Shown: positions 33,001 to 36,000 of the stretch, piece by piece | How positions within the stretch are numbered: position 1 is the first letter of the stretch | How the letters are laid out: each line of letters starts with the position of its first letter | Position numbers: made by a program | DNA from: an uncultured bacterium | GTDB lineage: Bacteria; Babelota; Babeliae; Babelales; Vermiphilaceae | DNA length: 64,000 nucleotides | Reading direction: 5' to 3' | NCBI GenBank assembly: GCA_963702025.1 | Contig: OY969699.1 | Location: forward strand, 1,532,034 to 1,596,033

Positions 33001-36000
33001 TCTGCAATAATTGTTGCTGGTAATTCTCGAGCAATTATTTTACAAAAGATACATGAAGACATGTTATTCAATCCAAAAATATTTTTATTATTATTTAAAA
33101 GAAGCTGACGGCTCTAGGTTGCTGCTCGTCCGTCTACGCTTTCACTTCGTCAATATCAATTACTAAAGAAGTTTGTGCTTCCCAGCCGTCGCTCTTCGAG
33201 CTATGGCGGGCAGGGCTGCCGGACAGTCTTCGCATCCTGCTTTTCAAATTTTTTGTTCTACCTTATAGGGTTGGCGAAGCCAGGCGTAGCCCGCTAGGGC
33301 GAAGACTGGTGCCGGGGGTCGGACTCGAACCGACATGATGTCAAACATCGCTGGATTTTGAGTCCAGTGCGTCTACCAATTCCGCCATCCCGGCATTAAA
33401 ATATGCTATTAATAATAGCGCAAATTACGCTATCGTCAATAAAAAACATCCCCTGTCTATATGCTTATTGTTCAGATAACAAAGGCAACGTTCATGATTG
33501 GTGTATAAATCGCAACGATAAGTGTCCCAATCATAAGACCCAGAAATACCAGAAGACATGGACCAAAAAGTGCATTCGCGCGCGTCAAATTTTTTAAAAG
33601 GCGTTCTTCATGAAATTCGGCGATCCGAGTCAATATTTCTGTGAGCATCCCTGTCTCTTGCGCCACCTGCAAGAGCGCAATTGTTTCTTGATCACACAAA
33701 GTGGTACTTTCTTTCAATGCATGGGCCATTGTGTTGCCTGCTTTTACCTGATCGAATGCCCCATGTAATTGCTTTCTTATATGCTGATTTGCAACAGACT
33801 CTTTTACAATATTGCATGCCTGAATAAGTGATGTGCCGCCTTCTAATAAAAGCGCCAGCGATTTAAAAAATGTTGCCATTGTATTTGCCGTATAAATTGC
33901 CGCTAAAAAAGGAACTCGCAATGTCAGAGCATCAATTCGCGATTTCCCCGAAGCGGTAGCTGCATAAATTTTGGCACCATAAAAAGCTGCCGCACCGATG
34001 AGCATAAGCAAGATCATCTGCCAACTTTGAATAAAATTACTTACTCCAATTAAGAATTTGGTGCTACCGGGCAACTCTTTGTGCAACGACCCAAAAACAG
34101 CCGTTAGTTGAGGCACCACAACAACTAAAATAATGGCAGTAACCAGTACAAAAAAAGCGGCAGTTACTAACGGCAAAAGAAGCGCGCTGCGTAACTTTTT
34201 TTTAAATTCAGCAACCGATTCAAGATGTTTGCATAATACCTGCAGGGAACCTATGATATTCCCCGATTCTTGTCCCACGCTCATCATTTGAACCATTATC
34301 GGACTAAAGAACTTGGGGAATTGGCACAACGCCTGCGATAAAAAGATACCATTATTAACTTGATGGGCAACGCCAGATGTTGCCGAGCCAAACCCGGTAT
34401 GCGCGGTCTGGTGCGCAAGCAGAAAAAGTGCTTCAGGAAGCCGCATTCCTGATTTAATCAGCATAGTAAGTTGGGTGAAATAATGTATTTTATCCTGCAA
34501 ACTCATCTGTTTTGATAGTCTAAATTTTTTCTGGCGGCAAGAAAGCAGCGCAACCTCTTGCTTTAATAATACTCCATCGAGTTCTTCAGGAGTTCGCGCA
34601 AAATATATTCCTTTTTTTGTTCCTGCTTGCAGGGTAATGCCTTTCCATGAAAAATAGGGCATAGCTCTCCTTGTTTAGAATACGGTAAGTTGACGCTCAA
34701 TTCCCAATGCTGCCAGCAATTGTTCATAGGTAATATTCGTATCAATTTTTATTCTTTTATTGCGATCGGTTGCTCCCGAAACAATTGTTATATGATTTTG
34801 CGTAATTCGTAATGCCTTTGCAATAGTTTTAACGAGCTCCTCATTGGCAAGCCCGCGCTCGGCAGGATTCTTTAAATAACCTTTAAGAATGCCTGATTTA
34901 TCAATGATCCATCTGCTTTGCCCTGAAGAAGGAACCACTTTTATCTGAACAATTAATGCCATGATGTTCCTTTACAATTATGCTTTATCATAGACAATGC
35001 TTGCATAAAATCGCAAATAATTTATTCTTTTTGTATCTTTGAAAAATAAGTTAAGGAGAGATGGCTGAGTGGCCTAAAGCGCTTGCCTGCTAAGCAAGAG
35101 CTCCAGAAATGGGGCACGAGGGTTCGAATCCCTCTCTCTCCACCATACTTCGCTAAAGCTTCGTATGGCAGGCCAGTTTCTTTTAAGGATTGGCTTAATT
35201 AAAATTTTGACATTAATAGCACTAAGCGAAGTATGCCCTTCGAAGCTCCGAAAGGAGCGAAGTAGGGCCTGGCGCAGCCTGGACTATTATGCTAAAGAGC
35301 AATTTTTAAAGATTTCATGCGCCTATAGCTCAATTGGATAGAGCGTCAGACTACGGATCTGAAGGTTTAAGGTTCGACTCCTTATAGGCGCACCAGTCTT
35401 CGCCTACGTGGGCTAGACTTCGAAGTATAAACACGGCTACGCCTGGCGCGGCCAGTCAATTATAGGGCGGAGTTTATCCTGAGCGAAGTCGAAGGGCCTG
35501 GCAGGCCAGTCTTTAAGGAAGCAAAATAAATTATAATAGCAAAATGCGAAGACTGTCCGGCATAGCCCGTATGGGCGACGACGGACTAGCTGGCATCTAT
35601 TAAAGTTTTTTACCTAATAACATGATGCATTACGTATATATATTAAGATCTGTAAATTTTCGTAACCAGATTTACATTGGTGTAACTGTAAATCTGAAGA
35701 AAAGACTCTCAGACCATAATTGTGGAAATTCTGCTCACACTTCAAAATATAAGCCATGGGAATTAAATTCTTATCATGCATTTAGCAATGAAAATACTGC
35801 TATAGCTTTTGAGAAGTATCTTAAGACACATTCTGGTAGAGCTTTTCTTAGCAAAAGATTAGTATCAAATAACATTCGCCCGTAAAGGGCTTGCATCATC
35901 GCCCTTCGAATACTTCTACCTCTTGCAAATTGTGCCTCAAATAGTGTAATTTTTATATATCTAATCAATCCATTATTATTTAAAGCAGGAGAATTTTATG

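Follow-up and report, generated by a model that had tools for sequence, protein, structure and literature searches.

The window analyzed here is a stretch of 64,000 nucleotides from an uncultured bacterium of the Vermiphilaceae (Babelota; contig OY969699.1 of assembly GCA_963702025.1). Near its middle, a tRNA-Ser(GCT) gene is followed directly behind its encoded CCA by a small hairpin that returns further downstream in inverted orientation. The neighboring tRNA-Arg(ACG) gene carries a second module of this kind, which leads into the gene of a small GIY-YIG nuclease, and gene-less modules lie behind other tRNA genes nearby (Table 1).

Table 1. Features of the window around the tRNA-Ser(GCT) module (positions count along the window).
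Feature	Position	Strand	Remarks
tRNA-Ser(GCT) gene	35055..35145	+	encoded CCA, 35143-35145, is the module anchor
Left hairpin, CCA-NN-C-TWC-GC-loop-GC-TWC-G-N'N'-TGG	35143..35168	+	3x3 pyrimidine internal loop; tRNA CCA inside the outer stem
Box	35146..35153	+	forms the 5' arm both in the left hairpin and in the long-range stem; NNCT[T/A]CGC match from +1
Mini hairpin, TGG-loop-CCA	35166..35177	+	second CCA (35173-35175) at the 3' end
AT-rich spacer, 48 nt	35178..35225	+	IHF-like site found in this spacer class
Far arm	35226..35233	+	perfect complement of the box; closing stem of the first-pass annotation
Right hairpin	35235..35268	-	the left hairpin in inverted orientation; its 3x3 internal loop is purine when read on the + strand
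tRNA-Arg(ACG) gene	35319..35395	+	
Second module, after tRNA-Arg(ACG)	35393..35586	+	directly upstream of the nuclease gene
Parts of the second module		+	in order, a left hairpin whose loop is enlarged, a nested repeat of a different type, the spacer, the far arm at 35546-35553 and the right hairpin at 35555-35586
GIY-YIG nuclease gene	35622..35885	+	87 aa, single-domain, Slx1/UPF0213-like; candidate cognate enzyme
Broken second GIY-YIG copy	36401..36601	+	lacks its 5' part and has one stop; lies immediately ahead of tRNA-Ser(TGA)
tRNA-Ser(TGA) gene	36646..36737	+	
Gene-less module behind tRNA-Ser(TGA)	36735..36849	+	far arm 36810-36817; right hairpin 36819-36849
Gene-less module behind tRNA-Leu(CAA)	33226..33309	-	tRNA at 33307-33394, minus strand
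Gene-less module with nested repeats behind tRNA-Leu(CAG)	32413..32571	-	tRNA at 32569-32655, minus strand

According to ARAGORN, the genome holds 40 tRNA and tmRNA genes, 39 of which end in CCA. The first-pass annotation had described a box, NNCT[T/A]CGC, that begins at +1 behind 30 of the 40 genes; this count was reproduced with the ARAGORN gene set, as was the genome-wide rate of the box hexamer, 2.7e-4 per position. In 28 of the 30 boxed trailers a near arm ending in TGG has two partners, the box and the CCA of the tRNA itself. A far arm, complementary to the box perfectly or with one G-T pair, was found by script behind the AT-rich spacer (35-48 nt across modules) in 17 of the 30, where 16 had been counted before, and an inverted right hairpin was found by script behind 12 of these 17 far arms. 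The length of ~95 nt first given to the module has to be corrected: 13 of the 17 trailers have the end of the closing stem between +80 and +88, the other 4 at 110-173 nt, and the copy behind tRNA-Ser(GCT) is 88 nt long (35146-35233), the end formerly assigned to it (35241) lying 8 nt inside the next hairpin. By eye, the far arm of the Cys, Leu(TAG) and Phe trailers can be seen to be the 3' arm of an inverted copy.

A pattern scan of a genome collection for a T-arm, CCA and left hairpin returned at least 120 loci. In 96 of 120 pattern-found loci the TGG has an alternative partner, namely a second CCA a few bases downstream. The variable dinucleotide of the box shows a four-way covariation. It is complementary to the near arm in 101 of the 120 loci (21 expected) and covaries with the dinucleotide after the second CCA in 41 of 95 (11.5 expected), counts in which related sequences are not independent. 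The covariation of the closing stem reported earlier holds in these independently found loci as well, with 28 of 32 far arms complementary at the variable dinucleotide (5.6 expected, at most 14 in 2000 shuffles), related sequences again not being independent.

The parsing of 206 distinct trailers from all loci gave 164 left and 32 right hairpins. The loops of the left hairpins (CAAG, TAAA, TGAA) and of the right ones (CTTG, TTTA, TTCA) are mutually reverse-complementary, and so are the internal loops (TWC x TWC on the left, GWA x GWA on the right), as expected of a DNA inverted repeat. The counts of G-T versus A-C mismatches are small and amount to 8:5 in the near stem, 3:4 in the far stem and 3:7 in the inner stem. 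Only the extension of the mini hairpin prefers G-T over A-C (42:13), which could mean pairing on the transcribed strand or merely a fixed GT behind the second CCA. Of 28 complete modules, 12 contain an IHF-like site that departs from the consensus at no more than one position (in shuffles, 2.4 on average and 7 at most), and the genome encodes two proteins of the HU/IHF family. TTGACA-like hexamers were also seen in the spacer by eye, without a fitting -10.

A strict scan of this genome for the hairpin finds 47 copies and none in each of four Markov controls; it supersedes a looser scan with 63 matches against 10-11 in the controls. Sixteen of these 47 are separated from the nearest tRNA end by over 700 nt, so the hairpin is not specific to tRNAs. 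As the first-pass annotation had stated, the module has no counterpart in Rfam: with the Rfam 15 covariance models there was no non-tRNA match near the cut-off in window positions 32400-37200 or in 15 loci, and the Acido-Lenti-1 model gave nothing over its cut-off. The sequencing runs searched for the sequence are all assembled contigs, and the four that were inspected contain mostly tRNAs of other organisms.

The nuclease gene of the window lies 35 nt behind the tRNA-Arg(ACG) module and encodes an 87-aa GIY-YIG domain (PF01541). Its predicted structure has the GIY-YIG fold (pLDDT 91), and its closest relatives by profile and fold are Slx1, At-HIGLE and UPF0213. NCBIfam has no family for this protein, and its Atlas neighbors are unnamed GIY-YIG clusters from several phyla. 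In 20 of 20 aligned nucleases the residues Y6, Y18, G20, R28, H32 and E64 are invariant; these are residues of the GIY-YIG catalytic core. Slx1 cleaves branched DNA, so a hairpin or cruciform would be a fitting substrate for such an enzyme. Two intact members of the class are present in this genome and are merely 48% identical, which indicates that the gene has not moved recently here; gene-less copies outnumber genes in this genome by about 15 to 1.

Relatives of the nuclease are found in 56 of 80 family genomes. A boxed tRNA end occurs in 54 of the 56 genomes with the gene, versus 10 of the 24 without it, a comparison in which kin are not independent and in which one genome, G017, is scored as box-free despite two matches behind a shifted CCA. 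The best 30 nuclease loci, one per genome and this genome included, mostly share one layout. In 24 of them a tRNA or tmRNA gene of the same strand lies at most 700 nt upstream with the module in between, and 13 tRNA types are represented; 18 of these 24 fit the box pattern, while the others carry variants, as judged by eye. Five of the remaining six show CCA and module without a called tRNA, and one lies at a contig edge. The start codon is mostly found tens of bases behind the right hairpin, and the product measures 80-87 aa in 28 of the 30, the other two having 89 and 107 aa. One complete module that has no tRNA precedes a GIY-YIG gene at contig positions 1019235-1019606. Behind several nuclease genes one sees, by eye, another module, a further gene copy that is broken, or the 3' stub of a tRNA together with a module.

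Loci found by pattern, blind to the gene, were also inspected by profile search. Of the 73 loci with at least 400 nt available, 16 have a nuclease gene downstream in the same orientation (26 of 120 overall); it was met upstream once and in antisense never. The nearest relative of a nuclease stands at the same tRNA type in 4 of 19 scorable cases.

The presence of the module is patchy. At least one boxed tRNA end was found in 64 of 80 family genomes, with a range of 0-26 per genome, and the full left hairpin in 147 of 214 phylum genomes with 0-22 copies each. Five family genomes that are 91-96% complete, four of them in one contig, have no box at any of their 157 CCA-type ends (28-33 ends each; a few of the 157 are not tRNAs); these close relatives can dispense with the repeat. 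The spacer between the Ser(GCT) and Arg(ACG) genes, for which 17 stretches were fetched and 3 with another Ser gene dropped, measures 7-17 nt in the five box-free genomes, which carry the empty allele, versus 61-247 nt in nine with the module, this genome included. Differing RNase sets were considered as a cause of the patchiness and no difference was seen. In five genomes, two module-rich and three module-free, RNase E/G was present in all and RNase II/R in none; RNase Z did not exceed the cut-off in any of the five, and weak RNase Z-like matches below it appeared only in the two module-rich genomes. The 80 titles of the matches listed from the pattern scan include Alpha-, Gamma- and Deltaproteobacteria, Verrucomicrobiota, Acidobacteriota, Patescibacteria, Dependentiae, Nitrospirota, Planctomycetota, Bacillota and Bacteroidota, and among them are records of the cultured hosts Bradyrhizobium and Mesorhizobium.

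Ten genes of this genome have no box, among them the single genes for the Asp, Gln, Trp and Ile tRNAs. Three of the ten, Asp, Gln and Arg(TCT), adjoin serine-recombinase genes. Orphan sites made of CCA plus module are found 7.5 kb behind the single tRNA-Asp and 27 kb behind the single tRNA-Arg(TCT), and we read them as trailers displaced by recombinase islands. The box was also found behind a shifted CCA (C71-C72-A73), with 18 matches in a search (10 of 80 genomes) whose spacing misses normal CCA ends and which therefore serves for shifted-CCA cases only. In one case, genome G006, a full module stands behind a duplicated 5' half of tRNA-Ser(TGA), at the CC of the anticodon stem, and the intact gene has no module. 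From the shifted matches and this half-tRNA it follows that the anchor is the trinucleotide and not the mature tRNA end.

Another question is whether the modules are inherited together with their tRNAs. We compared 28 complete modules from this genome and five sister genomes, taken from 40 stretches chosen for the box. The best match was never (0 of 28) the same tRNA of a sister genome and in 14 of 28 it was another tRNA of the same genome, in a sample skewed by the 18 modules that come from this genome and by only 8 same-tRNA pairs. These 8 pairs are slightly more alike on average (mean identity 0.68 versus 0.58-0.59 for other pairs), so the history of the modules is partly vertical. For the rest, the modules are homogenized inside genomes and not inherited with their tRNA. 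One hairpin variant is repeated at many tRNAs inside single genomes (G092, G129, G138), and in this genome the variable dinucleotide travels with the element class. The statement of the first-pass annotation that the module is not a recent repeat is only partly right, as the trailers behind Leu(TAG) and Lys(CTT) agree at every position for 84 nt.

The explanation we favor, with a probability of roughly 0.6, is that the trailers are gene-less copies of a selfish hairpin/nuclease cassette that colonizes CCA ends and would spread by nicking and host-mediated copying. The order of the cassette is tRNA CCA, left hairpin, mini hairpin with the second CCA, AT-rich spacer, far arm, inverted right hairpin and the gene of an 80-90-aa Slx1-like GIY-YIG protein; most copies, that behind tRNA-Ser(GCT) included, would be its gene-less 5' end-piece. 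Observations in its favor are the layout, the four-way covariation, the co-occurrence of box and gene, the patchy presence, the homogenization inside genomes and the place of the gene behind modules of many different tRNAs; the nicking, the targeting of CCA by TGG and the route of repair are inferences. The nuclease may nick the hairpin or cruciform DNA formed by the two inverted copies, which would offer one recognizable hairpin per strand, and host repair would then copy the cassette or the bare module between CCA ends by gene conversion or template switching, with the pairing of the element's TGG to CCA as a possible anchor for copying. A site just behind the CCA would spare the tRNA gene and supply the nuclease gene with read-through transcription. 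In the precursor RNA, the pairings of the far arm and the mini hairpin could replace the hairpin that sequesters the CCA and so make the insertion tolerable. The long stem may add a further layer there, by freeing the CCA or by tuning nuclease expression.

Some observations speak against this cassette, among them the 48% identity of the two intact genes, the partly vertical history of the modules and the G-T preference in the mini-hairpin extension, all given above. No nuclease is in reach at 57 of the 73 pattern-found loci, and boxes persist in the 10 gene-free genomes counted above. A hydrolytic GIY-YIG domain cannot join DNA, and neither a Y1 transposase (PF01797, 0 matches) nor a reverse transcriptase was found in this genome, which is 95% complete, so that the copying step is left unexplained.

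Could the host instead have domesticated the pair? In such a case, which resembles SsnA/NTS, the host would maintain hairpins behind its tRNAs as places for the nuclease to cleave DNA that enters the cell or integrates at these hot spots, and the spread would be passive, through host recombination. According to the main text of PMC11893778, SsnA, a single-domain GIY-YIG protein, cuts single-stranded DNA beside a hairpin repeat and modulates transformation. The tRNA ends of this genome are real integration sites of serine-recombinase islands, but two of these ends were invaded despite a module that now stands at the far end of the island. Copy numbers of 0-26 among relatives, together with broken and tandem gene copies, likewise look more like turnover than conservation, and we regard domestication as unlikely.

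A cis-acting RNA switch in the nuclease leader seems quite unlikely to us. Here the UGG would pair with either the tRNA CCA or the internal CCA and couple expression to tRNA processing, the gene-less copies being remnants. The mutually exclusive pairings do covary, at the near arm, the second CCA and the far arm alike, the near and far helices have equal predicted RNA energies (-7.2 each), and the position of the start codon past the right hairpin would suit a leader. The main helices, however, have no strand bias, the loops are reverse-complementary, and the pairings are still kept in gene-less copies that far outnumber the genes; the spread to new tRNAs is also left unaccounted for. Such a switch is compatible with the cassette as an added layer.

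Very unlikely, in our view, is the interpretation of the first-pass annotation, in which a dedicated 3' trailer RNA directs tRNA and tmRNA maturation and its long stem behind the CCA guides an endonuclease to the mature end. The exact +1 position at 30 of 40 genes would fit this role, but the box is also placed behind a CCA within the acceptor end or at the anticodon stem of a duplicated tRNA half, is missing from single tRNA genes, and occurs at none of the 157 CCA-type ends in five near-complete family genomes. The tested RNases do not separate the two groups, RNase E/G being likewise present and RNase II/R likewise absent; the lack of RNase II/R, with RNase Z below its cut-off, makes unusual processing conceivable in the five tested genomes. 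The predicted best fold of the tRNA precursor has a cloverleaf-like core and the long stem (z -3.72), and the far arm remains perfect even where the near arm carries a T-C mismatch; yet just 17 of 30 boxed genes have a far arm, and the main helices show no G-U excess on the transcribed strand. Copies away from tRNAs, the islands that probably carried the trailers of tRNA-Asp and tRNA-Arg(TCT) away, and the place of the module as the 5' end of a nuclease cassette also oppose a maturation signal. What stands of the annotation is a conserved, covarying, CCA-anchored structured module that is absent from Rfam; a 3' trailer RNA needed for tRNA maturation is not supported. Its own alternative, inverted repeats of a DNA element that targets tRNA ends, is the better fit.

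Two narrower ideas were rejected: a T-box-like pairing of UGG with the tRNA NCCA, as TGG is followed almost without exception by C, which fits the internal GCCA and not the varied discriminators, and a self-templated fold-back origin of the near arm, as the complementarity ends at TGG regardless of the acceptor stem.

Returning to the hairpin/nuclease cassette, the element is real, widespread and apparently undescribed, a variant of the hairpin-repeat/small-nuclease kind, and there is a fair chance that it is a new class of mobile element. More specifically, and with somewhat less than even odds, it may be a minimal class of ~400 bp that manages without transposase, integrase or reverse transcriptase: an Slx1-like nuclease would nick its own hairpins, TGG would pair with the CCA of tRNA or tmRNA genes, and host repair would copy the element to any tRNA end, in gene-less form at 30 of 40 ends here and in about ten phyla. 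No description of a hairpin/nuclease element at tRNA ends was found in the literature searched, which left out most subscription papers; related repeats could be listed in the supplements of PMC11893778 and PMC3733652.

With the cassette, the tiny 'hypothetical' GIY-YIG proteins, a very large family, acquire a candidate function and a candidate substrate, and REP-type repeats without a transposase a candidate mobilizer, an open point in the text of PMC3733652. If the nick-and-copy model is true, it would be a route of DNA mobility aimed at the one trinucleotide common to all tRNA genes, in cultured hosts such as Bradyrhizobium and Mesorhizobium too, and might yield compact nicking enzymes that are specific for a structure or a sequence. 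A further caution is that a passed covariation test does not make a CCA-anchored, covarying 'trailer' a functional RNA.

Several known systems share some of these traits. Free-standing GIY-YIG homing endonucleases are likewise nuclease genes without an integrase, and like them the cassette, whose catalytic core is intact, would spread by cutting and host repair. They differ in that the proteins here have no DNA-binding domain (28 of 30 are 80-87 aa) and no intron or intein, and in that the targets are many genes of 13 tRNA types that share little beyond T-arm and CCA, with a large family of non-autonomous repeats. MITEs resemble the module in the ~90-bp unit, the terminal inverted repeats of 8-10 bp (the far arm complements the box in 17 of 30) and the non-coding core. 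The CCA with the same two bases that recurs after the left hairpin (41 of 95) could be a target-site duplication, but it lies inside the element and its dinucleotide travels with the element class. Unlike in MITEs, the gene lies outside the inverted repeats, the anchoring to CCA is strict and there is no matching transposase in the search for Y1 transposases. BIME-1 elements have an IHF site in their spacer, comparable to the IHF-like site in 12 of 28 modules.

REP, REPIN and BIME repeats with their RAYT transposases, in the GTAG and CGTC families, are treated by Di Nocera et al. (2013; PMC3733652). In the text of that paper, they are extragenic palindromes of 20-40 bp with unpaired trinucleotides between stem and loop, and they form inverted dimers 20-100 bp apart and mosaics of nested units; the module shares these traits, its inverted pair flanking a spacer of 35-48 nt. 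In contrast, this genome has no Y1 transposase and the partner is a GIY-YIG nuclease, which that text does not mention, and most copies are fixed to a tRNA CCA, which it does not report. REP repeats with a RAYT also bear an unpaired GTAG or CGTC tag at one end. The comparison with the 28 families of that paper was by its text, so identity with one of them is possible. The palindrome ~10 bp behind Methanopyrus tRNAs described in the text of PMC5217627 is unrelated.

The Ssn nucleases of CDD family cd10448 with their NTS/SRM hairpin repeats (Chenal et al., 2025; PMC11893778) differ from the present system in several points. The SRM consensus fits 0 of 30 trailers and has two matches genome-wide, neither at a module. 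The nearest solved relatives here are Slx1 and UPF0213, and the main text lists Slx1 apart from Ssn. The word 'tRNA' is absent from that main text, whereas the repeat here directly adjoins CCA and for the most part precedes the gene. In both systems, as far as the main text describes Ssn, a single-domain GIY-YIG protein of ~90 aa is encoded beside hairpin repeats of its own, numerous further repeats lack a gene, and the layout is IS-like with unproven mobility, and the invariant Y6, Y18 and E64 here take the positions of Y6, Y17 and E64 of SsnA. Functionally, the element described here is most like these Ssn/SRM systems and the REP/BIME dimers.

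Three of the four large serine recombinase genes that were found in the genome under study (L191–L194) have the CCA ends of tRNA-Arg(TCT), tRNA-Gln and tRNA-Asp as their points of convergence, and the island start behind tRNA-Asp is common to two other genomes, G004 and G005. At two further sites the CCA and module stand without a tRNA, and these orphan sites look like trailers displaced to the far ends of islands. A tRNA-like stretch with a T-arm motif, for which ARAGORN makes no call, was also observed behind one of them (contig ~1246520-1246600).

On the minus strand of another genome (G006:C1 ~150200-150750, L205), the 45-nt 5' half of tRNA-Ser(TGA), starting at the first base of the gene, meets a complete module at the anticodon stem, followed by the intact gene, which has neither a module nor an encoded CCA. 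In the genome under study, tRNA-Arg(CCT) lacks the CCA, and behind it lie two tandem repeats of a right hairpin with a 3' tRNA stub (contig 1144012-1144338). As a separate observation, a duplicated 5' start of tRNA-Ala(GGC), split by a hairpin of the module family, lies upstream of the intact gene (contig ~767050-767150).

In the same genome tmRNA is called at two places, separated by 9.2 kb. The shorter of the two calls, at 357 nt, differs in its tag and lacks a terminal CCA past its acceptor end, yet the full module is present. Among the tRNA 3' processing enzymes, neither an RNase Z match over cut-off nor an RNase II/R domain was found in the five family genomes searched (G000, the genome under study, and G002, G056, G057 and G063).

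In three of the DNA stretches (L012, L025 and L156) the whole module is present in head-to-tail tandem copies, located between the tRNA and the small GIY-YIG nuclease gene. In the genome under study, small GIY-YIG genes of a second class each lie between palindromes of other families, and these palindromes are also nested within several tRNA trailers.

Coordinates of features in the genome under study
Feature	Position	Basis
Large serine recombinase genes	contig 70648, 46361, 987216, 1239606	
Orphan CCA-plus-module sites	contig 1246414, 44499	
tmRNA calls	contig 182482-182838, 192053-192477	
Second-class small GIY-YIG genes	contig 164821, 490420, 1201851, 1332340	
240-aa ORF, repeated C2H2-like zinc fingers	window 37608-38330	Pfam, below cut-off
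Two tandem ORFs, Dps/ferritin-like in appearance	window 38476-39808	by eye
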